Shown here: one piece after another, positions 1 through 5,197 of the stretch
Position numbering within the stretch: position 1 is the first letter of the stretch
How the letters are laid out: every line of letters starts with the position of its first letter
Program-made: the position numbers and the translations under genes
Notes under the pieces: generated by a model
The model's input: only the letters and a program-made list of their open reading frames with translations
Told to the model about the DNA's origin: nothing
The model's database searches: none
From: a virus
Lineage: Duplodnaviria > Heunggongvirae > Uroviricota > Caudoviricetes
DNA length: 5,197 bases
Reading direction: 5' to 3' (one strand)
IMG/VR virus record: IMGVR_UViG_2671180433_000002

Positions 1-78
1 ATATTCGCCCTGACTTTCCAGAACCATACGGACTGCCCGTTGACGGACTTCAGGGGAAAAACGAGTATTTTTAGTCAT
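1..78 (-). CDS. IS629-like transposase OrfA, 5' portion only (26 codons; continues past window edge)
   Basis: Minus-strand ATG at 76-78, preceded by AGGA-containing AAACAGGATG context. Translation MTKNTRFSPEVRQRAVRMVLESQGEY is a typical IS3-family OrfA HTH N-terminus. Confidence 0.75.
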   Translation of the reverse strand, partial: MTKNTRFSPEVRQRAVRMVLESQGEY

Positions 79-132
79 CCTGTTTACCTCTTTCTCAGGA
101 AGTTTAGTCTCCAGGATTCCCGGGGCGGTTCA
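1..132 (-). mobile_element. IS629-like (IS3 family) insertion sequence, terminal fragment; left inverted repeat abuts 132 and the element continues beyond the window start
   Basis: Bases 1-132 are the exact reverse complement of 5066-5197. The terminal sequence TGAACCGCCCCGGGAATCC reads on the minus strand and ends at 132. The minus-strand ATG at 76-78 opens an ORF translating MTKNTRFSPEVRQRAVRMVLESQGEY, which I recognise as the N-terminus of IS629-type OrfA. Confidence 0.8.
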
Positions 133-671
133 TTGAGGAAAAACACTTCTTCAAACTTGAAGGTGAAACTTTACGTGAGTTCAAGCACAGAGTAGCTTTT
201 AACTACTCTGTGAAAATTGCCCGTAACGTTCGCTCCCTCATCCTCTGGACAGAACGAGGCGCAGCCCGTCACGCCAAAATGCTAGAAACCGATCAGGCGT
301 GGGATGTGTTCGAAAAACTGGAAGACTGCTATTTCAGCCAGTGCGAGAAAAATACTGGCAAACAAGAGAAGAAGCCCAACGGGCTTTCCGCAAAAGAAAC
401 AGACAGCCTTGTATGGCTGTGGGATTATGCCAACCGCTCACAGGCATTGTTCCGTGAGTTGTATCCCGCATTAAAACTGATTCAGTCTGGCTATTCCGGC
501 ATATGCCACGACTACGGCTATGAGTTCTCGTATATCATCGGGAGGGCGAGGGGCGTTTTAATTAATCACACGCGGGATATAGATATTTATGAGCCTGACG
601 GGCCGACGAACCTTCTGGCATGGGAAAGGCTTAAGAACAAAGAGTTGCCGCCTTCACTGCATCGCTACTGA
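133..671 (+). pseudogene. 5'-truncated phage regulatory protein (Rha/antirepressor-like N-domain remnant plus unassigned C-terminal domain); residual ORF annotated from GTG 210
   Basis: The frame of ORF 210-671 stays open upstream to the IS boundary at 133 ([32 protein letters not shown]...) with no ATG and no Shine-Dalgarno before GTG 210. The segment [28 protein letters not shown] resembles the C-terminal end of the Rha-type domain of the downstream antirepressor (LSPEFTARLVDRWRELE). Stop TGA at 669-671. Confidence 0.45.
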
Positions 672-687
672 CAATTGACAACTTAAC

Positions 688-714
688 AAACCCAGCTTCG
701 GCTGGGTTTTTTAT
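688..714 (+). terminator. Rho-independent terminator after the truncated gene
   Basis: Stem CCCAGC (691-696) pairs with GCTGGG (701-706) around loop TTCG, extended by AAA/TTT, followed by a T-run at 707-712. Confidence 0.7.
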
Positions 715-739
715 TGCTGAATTTTCAATATGAGAGGAC

Positions 740-1468
740 ATGACAATGAATGAGCTGATAAATAGCAGCATCATCAAAATGACCAGCATTGAAATCGCTG
801 AGTTGGTGGGGAGTCGTCCAGATAACGTAAAAATATCAATAGAGCGCCTGGCTGAATCTGGAGTTATTCAACTTCCTGCATTGCAGGTTTTCGAAAAAAT
901 CAATAACTTAGGACTGCGCCGTAGTGTCGAGGCTTACGTCTTCGAAGGCGAACAAGGTAAGCGAGACAGCATTATTGTCGTCGCCCAATTGTCGCCGGAA
1001 TTCACCGCTCGTCTTGTTGACCGTTGGCGAGAGCTTGAAGGGGCAACCGCGAAAATACCACAAACCTTTTCTGAGGCATTGCGCCTTGCGGCCGACCTTG
1101 AAGACCAGAAGGCTGAACTGGAGAAACAGCTTGCTCTCGCAGCACCTAAAGTTGAGTTTGCCGATCGAGTTGGCGAGGCCAGCGGAATTTTGATTGGAAA
1201 CTTTGCAAAGGTTGTTGGTATTGGTCCAAACAAACTGTTTGCGTGGATGCGCGATCACAAAATCCTTATTGCTTCAGGTTCCCGGCGCAATGTGCCAATG
1301 CAGGAATATATGGATCGCGGCTATTTCACAGTGAAAGAAACAGCGGTCAATACAAATCACGGAATACAGATCTCGTTCACCACAAAAATCACCGGGCGTG
1401 GTCAACAGTGGCTGACCAGAAAGCCGCTCGATAACGGAATGCTGAAAGTAACAGGGGAGGCTGCTTAA
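740..1468 (+). CDS. Phage antirepressor, N-terminal Rha-like domain plus C-terminal KilAC (ANT) domain
   Basis: 242 aa ORF. The N-terminus (SIEIAELVGSRPDNVKISIERL) has a Rha-like HTH. The C-terminal half (PKVEFADRVGEASGILIGNFAKVVGIGPNKLFAWMRDHKILI...YMDRGYFTVKE...TTKITGRGQQWL) matches the KilAC antirepressor domain pattern. GAGG at 734-737; ATG 746 is an alternative start with better spacing. Stop TAA overlaps the next start (TAATG). Confidence 0.8.
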   Translation: MTMNELINSSIIKMTSIEIAELVGSRPDNVKISIERLAESGVIQLPALQVFEKINNLGLRRSVEAYVFEGEQGKRDSIIVVAQLSPEFTARLVDRWRELEGATAKIPQTFSEALRLAADLEDQKAELEKQLALAAPKVEFADRVGEASGILIGNFAKVVGIGPNKLFAWMRDHKILIASGSRRNVPMQEYMDRGYFTVKETAVNTNHGIQISFTTKITGRGQQWLTRKPLDNGMLKVTGEAA

Positions 1469-1758
1469 TGGCTAACCTACGCAAAGAAGCGCGCGGCAGA
1501 GAATGCCAGGTACGGATTTACGGCGTATGCAATGGCAATCCTGAAACGACAGTTCTGGCACATTACCGGATGGCTGGAATTTGCGGAACGGGAATGAAGC
1601 CTGACGACCTGATCGGTGCATGGGCTTGTAGTGACTGCCACGCGGAGATCGACCGACGCACCCGAATTCTCGACAACAACGACGCCAGACTTTACCACCT
1701 GGAAGGCGTGATCAGGACGCAGGCGATATTGCTGAAGGAGGGGAAGATTAAGTCATGA
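1468..1758 (+). CDS. ybcO: YbcO-like DUF1364 protein (putative zinc-binding nuclease of lambdoid nin regions)
   Basis: 96 aa; MANLRKEARGRECQVRIYGVCNGNPETTVLAH...CSDCHAEIDRRT...RTQAILLKEGKIKS closely resembles the DLP12 YbcO sequence as I recall it, with four Cys in two pairs. GGGGAGG Shine-Dalgarno at 1453-1459. Lies immediately upstream of rusA as in DLP12. Confidence 0.85.
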   Translation: MANLRKEARGRECQVRIYGVCNGNPETTVLAHYRMAGICGTGMKPDDLIGAWACSDCHAEIDRRTRILDNNDARLYHLEGVIRTQAILLKEGKIKS

Positions 1759-2117
1759 ATGAATATGAGTTTGTGCTTCCCTGGCCGCCGACGGTGAATA
1801 CCTACTGGCGAAGACGGGGAAGCCAGTACTACATCAGCGATAAAGGCCAGAAATACCGAAAAGACGTACAGCAAATCATCCGGCAACTCAGATTAGACAT
1901 TTTCACTAAATCACGACTTCGCATCACAATTATTGCTGAACCACCAGATTCCCGCCGTCGCGACCTCGATAACATCCTGAAAGGTTTACTCGACTCTCTT
2001 ATCCACGCCGGATTTGCGGAAGACGACGAGCAATTCGATGACATTCGCGTAATTCGCGGCGTGAAAGTGCCTGGCGGTAGAGTGGGGATAAAAATCACCG
2101 AACTGGAGAACATTTGA
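1755..2117 (+). CDS. rusA: Crossover junction endodeoxyribonuclease RusA (Holliday junction resolvase)
   Basis: 120 aa; EFVLPWPPTVNTYWRRRG...RRRDLDNILKGLLDSLIHAGF..DDEQ..DIRVIRGVKVPGGRVGIKITE parallels E. coli RusA motifs (LPWPPS.N.YYR, RRRDLDN). ATG overlaps the ybcO stop (ATGA). Confidence 0.9.
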   Translation: MNEYEFVLPWPPTVNTYWRRRGSQYYISDKGQKYRKDVQQIIRQLRLDIFTKSRLRITIIAEPPDSRRRDLDNILKGLLDSLIHAGFAEDDEQFDDIRVIRGVKVPGGRVGIKITELENI

Positions 2118-2311
2118 TGAATGCTAAAATTCAAACGATACCTGAATTACTGATCTGCACCAGGGGAAATCAGACAGAAGTCGCCAGAATACTGAACTGC
2201 AATCGTGCTACAGTCAGAAAATACATTGATGATAAAGATGCGAAAAAGCACGCCGTCGTCAATGGCGTCCTTATGGTTCATCGCGGATGGGGTAAAGATA
2301 CTGATGCGTGA
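2117..2311 (+). CDS. ninH: NinH-like small DNA-binding protein
   Basis: [58 protein letters not shown] closely parallels lambda NinH as I recall it (..[50 protein letters not shown]). ATG 2117 overlaps the rusA stop (TGATG) with GGAG at 2105-2108; the ORF track's 2114 start is an in-frame TTG. Confidence 0.8.
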
Positions 2312-2738
2312 TATCCGGCAGGTTCTTGAGCGCTGGGGGGCATGGGCGGTAAATAACTATGAGGATGTTACATGGTCGCCCATTGCTGCCGGATTTAAGG
2401 GACTGATCCCCGAAAAAGTAAAATCACGTCCACAGTGCTGTGACGATGATGCGATGGTGATATGCGGGTGCATAGCCCGCCTTTACCGGAACAATCGCGA
2501 TCTGCATGACTTGCTGGTTGATTACTACGTGTTGGGGGAGACGTTCATGGCGCTGGCACGGAAACATGGGTGCTCTGACACCTGTATAGGTAAACGCCTT
2601 CACAAAGCGGAGGGGATTGTTGAAGGCATGCTGATGATGCTGGGAGTGAGGCTTGAGATGGATCGGTATGTTGAGCGTGAATTGCCGGGAGGGAGAAGCT
2701 CTGTATTTTATCAGCGAAAAAATAGTTTACGATCGTAA
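2304..2738 (+). CDS. Q: Late-gene antiterminator Q, Q82/QuuD-type
   Basis: From ATG 2304: [34 protein letters not shown]...[20 protein letters not shown]...[11 protein letters not shown] matches the N-terminus and Cys-rich zinc motif of QuuD-family Q proteins as I recall them. The start overlaps the ninH stop. The upstream in-frame extension from 2205 overlaps ninH and is not supported. Confidence 0.85.
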
Positions 2739-2753
2739 AAATCTGCATATCAT
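2726..2753 (+). promoter_or_regulatory. Candidate late promoter pR' (-35 TTTACG 2726-2731, -10 TATCAT 2748-2753, 16 bp spacer), overlapping the 3' end of Q
   Basis: Hexamers read directly from the sequence, in the position expected for pR' immediately after Q in lambdoid phages. The match to consensus is modest and the spacer short. Confidence 0.3.
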
Positions 2754-2784
2754 GATAAGAGTGGTTACATTGCCACGCAGCCGA

Positions 2785-2808
2785 ACCCGCCGATGCGCGG
2801 GTTTTTTT
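2785..2808 (+). terminator. Rho-independent terminator, candidate tR' (target of Q antitermination)
   Basis: Stem ACCCGC (2785-2790) pairs with GCGGGT (2797-2802) around loop CGATGC, followed by a seven-T run (2802-2808), about 50 bp after the candidate pR'. Confidence 0.7.
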
Positions 2809-2988
2809 GTACCCAGAATCCTGTGAGCTATACGGAAAGTACACAGAAAGGAAGGTACGACCGCAATTAATAACAAAATCTTAAAAATCTCATATGGCAC
2901 TATTAGTTTTCTAAATATTGTATATTTTAAGTATTGCAGGATAACCCTGTAACGAAGTTTGCGTAACAGCATTTTGCTCTACGAGTTT

Positions 2989-3018
2989 GCCAGCCTCCCC
3001 TGGTGGCTGGCTTTTTTT
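2989..3018 (+). terminator. Rho-independent terminator
   Basis: Stem GCCAGCC (2989-2995) pairs with GGCTGGC (3005-3011) around a 9 nt loop, followed by seven Ts (3012-3018). Confidence 0.65.
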
Positions 3019-3252
3019 GTATCCGTTCAACGGGAATGTTACATACCTCACAATTAAGTCAGTTGAATGTTGTCTGCCCGGATGAGAATTTGTTAGAAAA
3101 AACTGCATGGTGAATCCCCCTGAGCGGAGGGGCGACTGGTGACGGTATAATCTCTGATTATCAAAACGAGAATGACGCGGGTTTAGTGGCACCGGGCTGA
3201 ACTCACCGGGAGGCACCCGGCACCATGCAATGGCACATAGCGCCACTCTCCA

Positions 3253-3278
3253 GCCCCTCTCCGGAGGGGCTTTCTTAT
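3253..3278 (+). terminator. Terminator-like hairpin with interrupted T tract
   Basis: Stem GCCCCTC (3253-3259) pairs with GAGGGGC (3264-3270) around tetraloop TCCG, followed by TTTCTTAT (3271-3278). Confidence 0.5.
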
Positions 3279-3282
3279 GGAC

Positions 3283-3310
3283 AAAAAAGCCCGCGCTGGG
3301 AGACGCGGGC
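3283..3310 (-). terminator. Minus-strand rho-independent terminator, convergent with the 3253-3278 hairpin
   Basis: Stem GCCCGCG (3289-3295) pairs with CGCGGGC (3304-3310) around an 8 nt loop. It is preceded on the + strand by AAAAAA (3283-3288), which is a U-run after the hairpin for a minus-strand transcript. There is no T-run after it on the + strand. Confidence 0.5.
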
Positions 3311-3503
3311 GGCAAGGAATGAACAATGAAACGTGAAGTAATATTTCAGCTGGCGAATAATACCCCATAGTAATCACTCTGCGCAACTGCGCGACCTTTT
3401 TCGAATTGCGGGCTGTAGTCTCCCTTCTGCCATTGTCCTGTAACTTCCGGACTTCAGCCCGCTCCTTATTTTACTCACAATATTATCCCGGCCGGGAGGA
3501 TTC

Positions 3504-5065
3504 ATGGCATTTAAACACTATGATGTTGTCAGGGCGGCGTCGCCGTCAGACCTTGCGAAACGAATAACTCAAAAACTGAAGGAAGGGTGGCAGCCTTATG
3601 GTAGTGCGCTGATTTCGACAGCTGGTTATGGTGCGGAGTTCATCCAGCCAGTTGTGAGTGAGGGGAGCATCTCATCACCAGAGGAGCCAGGCAACCGTCC
3701 GACGACCTCAGCGCCTTCTGTTGCGCCAGAATATTACTATGTGATCGCGCTTGCTGGTCAGTCCAATGGTATGTCATACGGTGAGGGACTGCCATTACCG
3801 GATACATTCGACAGCCCTGATCCACGTATTAAACAGTTAGCGCGTCGCAGTACGGTGACACCGGGCGGTGCAGCATGCAAATATAACGACATCATTCCGG
3901 CGGACCATTGTCTGCATGATGTGCAGGACATGAGCCGTCTTAACCATCCGAAAGCGGACCTGTCAAAGGGGCAGTACGGAACCGTGGGGCAGGGGCTGCA
4001 TATCGCCAAAAAACTGCTGCCGTTTATACCGGCGAATGCGGGCATTCTGCTGGTTCCGTGCTGTCGTGGTGGTTCAGCGTTCACCACCGGAGCTGATGGC
4101 ACATACAGTGACGCGAGTGGCGCCTCGGAGAATTCAACCCGCTGGGGTGTGGACAAGCCGCTGTATAAGGACCTTATCGGTCGAACAAAAGCGGCACTGG
4201 AGAAGAACCCGAAAAATGTGCTGTTTGCCGTGGTGTGGATGCAGGGGGAATTTGATTTTGGCGGTACGCCGGCAAATCATGCCGCACAGTTTGGTGCGCT
4301 GGTTGATAAATTCCGTGCAGACCTGGCGGATATGGCAGGCCAGTGCGTCGGTGGCTCTGCTGGCGGTGTTCCCTGGATATGCGGGGACACGACGTATTTC
4401 TGGAAGCAGAAGAACGAATCCACGTACCAGACGGTGTACGGCAGCTATAAAAATAAAACGGAAAAGAATATCCATTTCGTACCGTTCATGACCGATGAGA
4501 ACGGGGTGAATGTGCCGACGAACAAACCGGAAGAAGACCCGGACATTCCGGGTATCGGTTATTACGGTTCGAAATGGCGTGACAGCTCAGCCACCTGGAC
4601 GTCACAGGACAGGGCGAGCCATTTCAGTTCATGGGCTCGCCGTGGGATTATTTCCGACCGTCTGGCAACGGCGATTCTGAGCTGCGCGGGTAAGTCTTCT
4701 GCGTTTGTTAATGGTACTGCCGGGGTGGTTGTTCCAGACAGACCGGTTACCACCTCAGAGTCTGTAATTTTTTACGATGCCAAAAAAGCTACAGACAATC
4801 AGCTGAAACCCTATGGCTGGGACGGTGTGTATGGCAGGCGCACACTGGTTGATGACAGCGGCAATAAAGCTCTGCGAATTGAGAAAAATAACAGCGCGAA
4901 ATCCTGGTCAATGTACTGTGATATTGCTGCAGACAAGGCAAAACTTTTACTGGAAAAAGGCGGGGAAATTGCTGTCCGGTTTAAAATCCCCGAAAACGTC
5001 AATCTTGAGACAACCAGAAACAAGTATGCCTTTGGTTTGTACTGGCGAATAGCGGAATGGCCGGG
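3504..5065 (+). pseudogene. nanS-p: NanS-p-like prophage sialate (9-O-acetyl-Neu5Ac) O-acetylesterase, 3'-truncated by IS629 insertion (ORF runs to 5114 using IS-derived codons)
   Basis: N-terminal DUF1737-like segment (MAFKHYDVVRAASPSDLAKRITQKLKEGWQPYG), then an SGNH/SASA esterase block with the catalytic-serine motif (YYVIALAGQSNGMSYGEG). GGGAGGA Shine-Dalgarno at 3494-3500. The IS629 terminal repeat begins at 5066, so the last 16 codons ([15 protein letters not shown], stop at 5112-5114) are read from IS sequence. I recall full-length NanS-p proteins as roughly 600-650 aa, so about 100+ C-terminal residues are missing. Confidence 0.75.
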
Positions 5066-5197
5066 TGAACCGCCCCGGGAATCCTGGAGACTAAACTTCC
5101 TGAGAAAGAGGTAAACAGGATGACTAAAAATACTCGTTTTTCCCCTGAAGTCCGTCAACGGGCAGTCCGTATGGTTCTGGAAAGTCAGGGCGAATAT
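5066..5197 (+). mobile_element. IS629-like (IS3 family) insertion sequence, terminal fragment; left inverted repeat starts at 5066 and the element continues beyond the window end
   Basis: TGAACCGCCCCGGGAATCCTGGAGACTAAACTTCC starts at 5066. Bases 5066-5197 are the exact reverse complement of 1-132. The OrfA start ATG lies at 5120. Confidence 0.8.
5120..5197 (+). CDS. IS629-like transposase OrfA, 5' portion only (26 codons; continues past window edge)
   Basis: ATG at 5120 preceded by GAGG/AGGA; translation MTKNTRFSPEVRQRAVRMVLESQGEY. Confidence 0.75.
   Translation, partial: MTKNTRFSPEVRQRAVRMVLESQGEY

Follow-up and report, generated by a model that had tools for sequence, protein, structure and literature searches.

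Gene content of the locus

The window, that is, the whole 5,197-nt stretch of DNA that was analysed, is an exact piece (L003:20-5216) of the 5237-bp draft contig CYAX01000113.1 (assembly GCA_001285865.1), which is labelled E. coli. Between two oppositely oriented ends of the insertion sequence IS629 it carries part of a lambdoid prophage, beginning inside an antirepressor gene (ant) and ending inside an esterase gene (nanS-p) (Table 1). Identification of the segment as a nin/Q module, made in the original prediction, is borne out by Pfam matches on every ORF and by the order ybcO, rusA, ninH, Q, late promoter region and nanS-p, which is that of annotated lambdoid prophages. The region between Q and nanS-p is rich in terminator-like sites, with six against 1.1 expected and hairpins at 2783-2804, 2987-3006 and 3252-3271. 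It also contains a match to the STnc100 sRNA at 3077-3282 (Rfam RF02076, 165 bits; gathering score 47). Neither stx genes nor tRNA genes were found in this region.

Table 1. Features of the 5,197-nt window
Feature	Position	Strand	Evidence
Left-hand IS629, visible part	1-132	-	IRL terminus at 132 (…GGGGCGGTTCA); orfA start codon 78-76, reads towards base 1
ant antirepressor, 3' part (ORF6N + P22AR_C), residues 49-227 of 227	132-671	+	Pfam, frame analysis, intact homologue
Second antirepressor, KilAC domain protein, 240 aa, intact	746-1468	+	Pfam ANT E=5.5e-32; identical protein in intact prophages
YbcO/DUF1364 nin-region protein, 96 aa, intact	1468-1758	+	Pfam YbcO E=8.8e-44
RusA Holliday-junction resolvase, 120 aa, intact	1755-2117	+	Pfam RusA E=4e-17
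NinH, 64 aa, intact	2117-2311	+	Pfam Phage_NinH E=2.4e-30; annotated at L001:7989-8183
Late antiterminator Q, 144 aa, intact	2304-2738	+	Pfam Phage_antitermQ E=2.1e-50
Q-to-nanS-p intergenic late-promoter region	2739-3503	+	Hairpins, sRNA match
nanS-p, 5' part (DUF1737 + SASA esterase + start of DUF6645), native codons 1-520	3504-5065	+	ORF listing, Pfam
Right-hand IS629, visible part	5066-5197	+	IRL terminus TGAACCGCCCCGGG… at 5066; orfA start 5120, reads rightwards

The IS629 ends

IS629 is a member of the IS3 family, with the isoforms IS1203 and IS3411. The two arms of the window form a 132-nt inverted repeat, 100% complementary across an interval of 4933 nt, and a repeat so perfect cannot be due to chance. 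Each arm is 100% identical to the IS629 of Stx phages in GenBank ('IS3 family IS629 / IS629 transposase OrfA'; records LC567824 and LC567828) and is the same as positions 1-132 of a complete IS629 of 1310 bp (L008:1401-2710). This reference copy is flanked by a 3-bp target duplication (CTG/CTG) and possesses orfA and orfB, the programmed frameshift and the right-end repeat. The terminal inverted repeat of the arms begins 5'-TG… and matches the left end of IS629 (IRL), and in both copies this orfA-proximal end faces the interior, just as had been read from the sequence alone. The ATG at 5120 opens MTKNTRFSPEVRQRAVRMVLESQGEY, whose 26 residues match Pfam HTH_Tnp_1 with E=5e-4, a score under the gathering threshold because the orfA fragment is so short. 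Since both junctions use the same (left) end, a single IS copy behind both arms was rejected: there must be two of them, or two left ends at the least. By coincidence, four nucleotides at the left IS end (TTCA) and three at the right IS end (TGA) equal the uninterrupted phage sequence, for which reason BLAST alignments overrun the junctions; the IS termini place them at 132/133 and 5065/5066.

Each copy was assembled for 132 nt only in the window and for at most 151 nt in the full contig, the remainder of the 1310 bp lying off the contig. In an IMG/VR contig of the same locus (L019) the arms measure 80 nt, so that arm length is no property of the element. An assembler cannot pass through IS629, as the element is multicopy, and bracketing by IS ends is the expected outcome for a window that constitutes a whole short-read contig ending in a multicopy repeat. 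The IS629 bracket thus marks where the assembler stopped within a repeat and is no measured structure. It is normal for short-read assembly to yield contigs that terminate in IS repeats. When a short contig has identical inverted ends, repeat-limited assembly should be the first reading, and genes that appear truncated beside such ends are usually just interrupted.

Interrupted genes and their intact counterparts

The left IS629 cuts ant after codon 48. Relative to the intact 227-aa gene (L001:5860-6543), codons 1-48 are missing; an open frame extends from 671 backwards past 133 to base 108, in agreement with the earlier reading that the first phage gene loses its 5' end here. The remnant retains the whole P22_AR_C domain, and its match to ORF6N begins at model position 41. 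Translation could start at the earliest from a GTG at 210, giving the 153-aa product that is called in the assemblies. On the right side, the cut in nanS-p (636 aa when intact, L001:9376-11286) follows codon 520 and falls within DUF6645. The ORF is prolonged into IS629 as far as a stop at 5112-5114, and the resulting fusion of 536 aa includes 14 residues encoded by the IS. This window-type NanS-p/IS629 fusion protein is found on only four draft contigs, all of 5-10 kb.

The interior matches an intact prophage in one collinear piece with 99.9% identity, only 3 SNPs separating it from E. coli cM8a in 4933 bp. The prophages of E. coli cM8a, ML35 and NCCP15648 (L001, L002) share the identical order ant, KilAC-ant, ybcO, rusA, ninH, Q, nanS-p; they differ from the window by the absence of both IS629 copies, with ant (227 aa) and nanS-p (636 aa) intact. 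The nin/Q regions of Stx phages show 95% identity over 73-76% of the interior. When the KilAC protein and Q were looked up, all the prophages returned were free of the IS.

Far junctions of the two copies

A plain insertion of the right copy that duplicated 3 bp would have GGGTGAGGGTGG…, the 3' end of nanS-p, beyond the element, and its far junction would read …GGTTCA/GGG/TGAGGGTGG… or, in longer form, …CCCGGGGCGGTTCA/GGGTGAGGGTGGTGAAGG (slashes mark boundaries). The protein predicted from this junction, IS629 right end plus GGG plus the 3' part of nanS-p (142 aa or 136 aa), was found exactly in the protein collection. Its accessions carry the prefixes CTT (two), CTU and CTW (plus CTZ), as in the four window-type assemblies; it is further encoded by a contig of 4.73 Mb (4,733,599 bp; protein OUZ78427.1), and in one source it bears the label Shigella flexneri. 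A DNA search with a pattern built only from pieces of the window recovered the same junction in the contig L030, which reads …CCCGGGGCGGTTCA/GGG/TGAGGGTGGTGAAGG… and then continues as L001:10935-13042, with the 3' end of nanS-p followed by DUF1378, DUF826, holin and lysozyme. L033 has the same junction as L030, and two further matches to the pattern (L031 and L032) proved to be unrelated loci. The right copy is therefore flanked by a GGG target duplication, the window reading …CCGGG/IRL and L030 reading IRR/GGG/TGAGGG… (L001:10935 onward). The accession prefixes suggest that the right junction of the window and this far junction lie in one genome; the IMG genomes of L030 and L033 differ from that of L019.

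For the right copy, both the target duplication and the 3' part of nanS-p beside another IS629 end, which the original prediction had proposed to look for, were thus recovered in related assemblies. Its statement that the right IS629 cuts the NanS-p-like esterase gene stands, with the cut at codon 520, but the 3' part is not removed: it lies beyond the IS, displaced by 1.3 kb, and nanS-p is interrupted rather than deleted. The supposed separation of the module from its lysis genes is likewise unsupported, for DUF1378, DUF826, holin and lysozyme follow the far junction.

For the left copy, a plain insertion would have …GGTCGTTTCATTG on its far side (ant 5' end, ninE, ninB), with the junction …GGTCGTTTCATTG/TGAACCGCCCCGGGTTTCC…. 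The reciprocal junction was predicted as …TTCATTG or …TTCATTGA, then TGAACCGCC…. The missing 5' part of ant beside an IS629 end was sought by ORF look-up, by homology and in IMG/VR, and was found by none of these. Of the junction ORFs predicted for the two copies and looked up exactly (10, then 6), only right-hand ones matched, and none composed of the ant 5' end, TTG or TTGA and the IS629 right end did. Homology search with the predicted fusion returned many unrelated genes joined to antisense read-through of IS629, and search with the N-terminal 49 aa of Ant gave no left-junction fusion among its matches. The Ant N-terminal matches are accounted for by a frameshift allele (P0168) or by contigs that end in the paralogous ORF6N gene upstream of ninB (P0167). 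An IMG/VR match with TTCATTG and an IS end (L029) was a chance match in another gene. These negatives are weak, since on a contig that stops some 150 nt inside the IS the predicted fusion ORF would extend past the last base and escape being called.

Origin of the arrangement

The window probably represents a resident lambdoid prophage with two separate plain insertions of IS629, which struck ant and nanS-p in opposite orientations, and a contig that stops inside each. The source would be an E. coli/Shigella-type genome whose prophage carried ant, KilAC-ant, ybcO, rusA, ninH, Q, the late promoter region and nanS-p. One IS629 copy would have transposed into ant and another, oppositely oriented, into nanS-p, and the contig would end a k-mer-dependent distance inside each copy, producing the identical inverted ends. 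The left copy would likewise be a plain insertion with the 5' end of ant on its far side, and the segment would still have its original orientation. The original prediction had thus identified the genes and the IS correctly, but the rearrangement or composite unit that it deduced from them is unsupported. Inversion or deletion between IS copies, of which the bracketed ends were said to be the signature, finds no support in the collinear interior or, on the right side, in flanks that are contiguous as in the ancestral arrangement.

Among the alternatives, a true rearrangement at the left copy is unlikely, though the least improbable of them. Either a deletion associated with IS629 or an inversion involving a distant copy would have taken away or shifted the 5' end of ant together with the upstream early region, and the Q module would really be cut off from the replication and immunity genes on that side. 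It is favoured by the failure of every route tried to recover the reciprocal left junction, and by the finding that in O157:H7 only 21 of 47 IS629 sites have matching duplications, rearranged copies being common (PMC3271280). That failure, however, is expected from annotation practice on draft contigs, and at the right-hand end of this locus the insertion is a plain one. Moreover, two other contigs (L005 and L007) have their first base 3-15 nt within this left junction, and in L005 nanS-p is intact and the lysis genes are present, which fits a stand-alone insertion in ant.

Two identical inverted repeats at a distance of 4.9 kb can serve RecA as a substrate for inversion. It is conceivable, if rather improbable, that after two plain insertions recombination between the inverted 1.3-kb copies flipped, or keeps flipping, the 4.9-kb segment, leaving Q and the late promoter facing away from the lysis and morphogenesis genes. 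Such an event would alter none of the four IS/unique junctions, so that no observation contradicts it and short reads cannot decide it; by the same token it has no positive evidence in its favour, short-read contigs carrying no orientation information. More improbable still is the extension of this idea in which flipping of the 4.9-kb Q/late-promoter cassette by RecA would disconnect Q and PR' from the lysis and morphogenesis genes or reconnect them, as a reversible on/off switch of late-gene expression in this prophage lineage.

A composite-transposon-like block (IS629, Q region, IS629) moved to a new site, as originally proposed, is extremely improbable. The flanking of the segment by two inverted IS629 ends fits such a block, but the right IS has a GGG duplication of its own, which argues against a unit moved as a whole, and is followed by the remainder of the cognate nanS-p and by the lysis genes that belong with it. 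A single prophage contains both cut points at normal spacing, no other context of the unit was found in GTDB species representatives, JGI metagenomes or the other searches, and the outer ends, as judged from the structure of the element, would both be IS629 right ends rather than the left/right pair of a single copy. Equally hard to credit is an assembly artefact in which repeat collapse made one or both junctions chimeric: the contig does end in a multicopy repeat and the junctions occur in no finished genome, but both recur, independently assembled, in four NCBI assemblies and one IMG genome whose arms come in three lengths, lie well within the contig and so must have been spanned by reads, and the reciprocal right junction exists.

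Relation to known IS629 insertions

Insertion of IS629 in an E. coli prophage is routine and already well known, and IS629 in prophage genes is a well-documented cause of strain differences in pathogenic E. coli and Shigella. IS629 makes duplications of 3-4 bp, and 62% of its copies in O157:H7 sit in prophages (PMC3271280). The copies described here resemble those in the lambdoid and Stx prophages of O157:H7 and other STEC in the element itself, in the TGAACCGCCCCGGG… termini, in their location in prophage genes and, for the right copy, in the 3-bp duplication. They differ from known IS629 sites in position, as neither window junction (ant codon 48/49 and nanS-p codon 520/521) occurs in the 5426 complete E. 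coli genomes searched; exact scans of GTDB species-representative genomes and of JGI metagenomes also gave none. Both insertion sites occur in a few draft assemblies, and that in nanS-p is found also in contigs whose protein is labelled Shigella flexneri by one source.

The Stx prophages phiPA2 and phiPA8 differ mainly in the position of IS629, which interrupts an accessory gene or sits between genes and can alter prophage induction and virulence (PMC10810198). In those stx-carrying phages the element has hit a methyltransferase gene or sits at an intergenic site, whereas here ant and nanS-p are struck in a stx-negative prophage. The importance of the present case is small, its local consequence being presumably a prophage lineage with no functional Ant and a C-terminally truncated NanS-p. 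The Ant antirepressor is likely inactivated, and NanS-p likely retains its esterase domain and loses the C-terminal domain. Polarity on Q expression and late transcription may follow. With 1.3 kb added both upstream of Q and in the stretch from the late promoter to the lysis genes, the prophage may also be less inducible.

Other IS629 insertions in ant were also encountered. Two contigs (L004 and L006) carry a separate IS629 in this gene, 33 bp downstream and in the opposite orientation, with nanS-p intact, and further ant homologues (P0047 and P0049) are likewise cut by IS629.

IS629 ends and interior genes

The window is probably best explained as a resident prophage into which IS629 would have transposed twice, independently, seen through a contig that would have been broken at the IS629 repeats. 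Its two ends form a perfect inverted repeat of 132 nt per arm, the arms being separated by 4933 nt. The arm shows 100% identity to a stretch that GenBank Stx-phage records annotate as "IS3 family IS629 / IS629 transposase OrfA", and equals the first 132 nt of a complete 1310-bp copy in E. coli 4/2-1. The annotation of that copy is IS3-family transposase with programmed frameshift, and a CTG/CTG duplication lies on its two sides. Both arms carry the terminus TGAACCGCCCCGGG… and orfA codons 1-26, with orfA pointing outward from the interior. The IS629 ends, their inverted orientation and the cutting of the first phage gene and of nanS-p were thus correctly recognized in the original prediction; what the window itself shows is only an IS629 left end adjoining each side. 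Two mirror-image ORFs start antisense to orfA in the arms and run into the interior; almost certainly they code for nothing and arise only from the inversion of the ends.

Features of the window and the basis of their assignment
Feature	Position	Strand	Basis
IS629 arm, left	1-132		Inverted repeat
Mirror-image ORF	40-195	+	
Antirepressor (ant), 5'-truncated			Pfam: P22_AR_C whole; ORF6N from model position 41 only
KilAC antirepressor			Pfam
YbcO			Pfam
RusA			Pfam
NinH			Pfam
Antiterminator Q			Pfam
Hairpin, terminator-like	2783-2804		
Hairpin, terminator-like	2987-3006		
STnc100	3077-3282	+	Rfam: full length, 165 bits (gathering score 47)
Hairpin, terminator-like	3252-3271		
Hairpin, terminator-like	3310-3289	-	
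NanS-p type esterase			Pfam: DUF1737 and SASA
Mirror-image ORF	4811-5158	-	
IS629 arm, right	5066-5197		Inverted repeat

The interior occurs as one collinear piece at 99.9% identity among 5426 complete E. coli genomes, for example in cM8a and NCCP15648, with 3 SNPs between cM8a and the window. Relative to cM8a (ant, 227 aa; nanS-p, 636 aa), ant lacks codons 1-48, with the break within ORF6N, and nanS-p lacks the codons beyond 520, with the break within DUF6645 and the SASA domain whole. Neither tRNA nor stx genes were found in the window; Stx phages carry both between Q and nanS-p, whereas the window has, beside the strong STnc100 match, just a run of terminator-like hairpins there. The intact prophage contains a pair of ORF6N/P22AR_C paralogues whose N-termini are nearly identical (L001:4276-4941 and L001:5860-6543, upstream of the window). 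As a result, other assemblies have extra contig breaks near residue 49 (P0167), and in some genomes BLAST adds a spurious first piece to the match (2 pieces).

The right copy and the far side of nanS-p

A plain insertion at the right copy predicts the IS629 right end, a 3-4 bp repeat of the bases that close the interior (GGG) and the continuation of nanS-p (TGAGGG…). This construct was built from a reference IS629 joined to intact prophage sequence, and its ORFs were matched exactly against the protein collection. The 142-aa and 136-aa ORFs predicted for a 3-bp duplication both exist exactly, as E. coli and Shigella proteins under the names YjhS or DUF6645 protein. Their accession prefixes (CTT, CTT, CTU and CTW, plus CTZ) match those of the four window-type assemblies, and they are also encoded on one 4.73-Mb contig. 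A DNA scan with a pattern composed solely of window pieces yielded two contigs, L030 and L033, the former reading …CCCGGGGCGGTTCA-GGG-TGAGGGTGGTGAAGG…. Beyond this junction L030 matches L001:10935-13042 at 99.7% identity, covering the nanS-p 3' end, DUF1378, DUF826, holin and lysozyme. The 3' part of nanS-p, which the original prediction suggested seeking beside other IS629 copies, is present there with the GGG duplication, both in these contigs and in the exact proteins. It follows that nanS-p is interrupted and its 3' end is not deleted, with the lysis genes next as usual, contrary to the view that the one was removed and the others separated.

The ORF that opens within the IS629 right end and runs in frame into the nanS-p 3' fragment (P0031, P0046) is treated as genuine in public databases, under the name 'DUF6645 domain-containing protein' (MULTISPECIES Shigella); as its first ~20-26 residues are IS-derived, this looks like an annotation artefact. 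A 536-aa partial protein (P0045), of a clearly different nanS-p allele, is broken off by its contig edge at the very residues (…RIAEWP) where IS629 sits in the window. Another prophage could have been hit at this site too, or recombination could have carried the insertion along.

The left copy and ant as a target

At the expected left reciprocal junction, the ant 5' end (…TTCATTG) would run into the IS629 right end. It was absent from exact look-ups of predicted ORFs, homology searches and IMG/VR scans (3-bp and 4-bp duplications), negatives that are weak because the predicted 102-aa fusion ORF overruns a contig ending ~150 nt into the IS. Two contigs, L005 and L007, begin 3-15 nt inside the same left junction, and in L005 nanS-p is intact and the lysis genes are present; these contigs indirectly support a stand-alone insertion in ant, as do the repeated IS629 hits in ant-type genes. 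That the left copy marks a genuine rearrangement is unlikely.

In L004 (1-460) and L006, from other E. coli assemblies, an independent IS629 interrupts this ant gene 33 bp further downstream (equivalent to window 165/166) and in opposite orientation, while nanS-p is intact. IS629 also cuts two more ant homologues at other codons (P0047 and P0049, of which one is labelled O145:H28), and it seems to strike prophage ant genes recurrently. The target at the left insertion (GGTCGTTTCA followed by TTG; window 123-135 versus L001:5995-6007) resembles the IS629 terminus (GGGCGGTTCA) at 8/10 positions, which may be chance or may reflect insertion beside IS-end-like sequences.

Origin of the arrangement

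IS629 in O157:H7 is found mostly within prophages, with 3-4 bp duplications (PMC3271280), and its position inside an Stx prophage can alter induction and virulence (PMC10810198). The window is another such case, at two sites that finished E. coli genomes lack; it represents no new type of element and no new variant.

Recombination between the two inverted copies could invert the 4.9-kb segment and would leave every junction unchanged; such an inversion is considered quite improbable. A composite transposon is hardly credible, as the right IS629 has its own GGG duplication, which opposes movement as a block; of the original interpretation, this part and the deletion of the nanS-p 3' end are not upheld, so that the interpretation is partly supported, whereas the observation itself is confirmed.

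The 536-aa nanS-p/IS629 fusion protein, labelled E. coli, occurs on only four contigs, each of 5-10 kb. Neither junction of the window was found in the 5426 complete E. coli genomes, GTDB species representatives or JGI metagenomes. One of the four, CYAX01000113.1 (5237 bp), contains the window exactly at positions 20-5216 and has arms 151 nt long, and the same locus has 80-nt arms in an IMG/VR contig, so it is the assembler that dictates how long the inverted ends are. A chimeric join is as hard to credit as a composite transposon, since the independent recovery of both junctions in five assemblies speaks against it.
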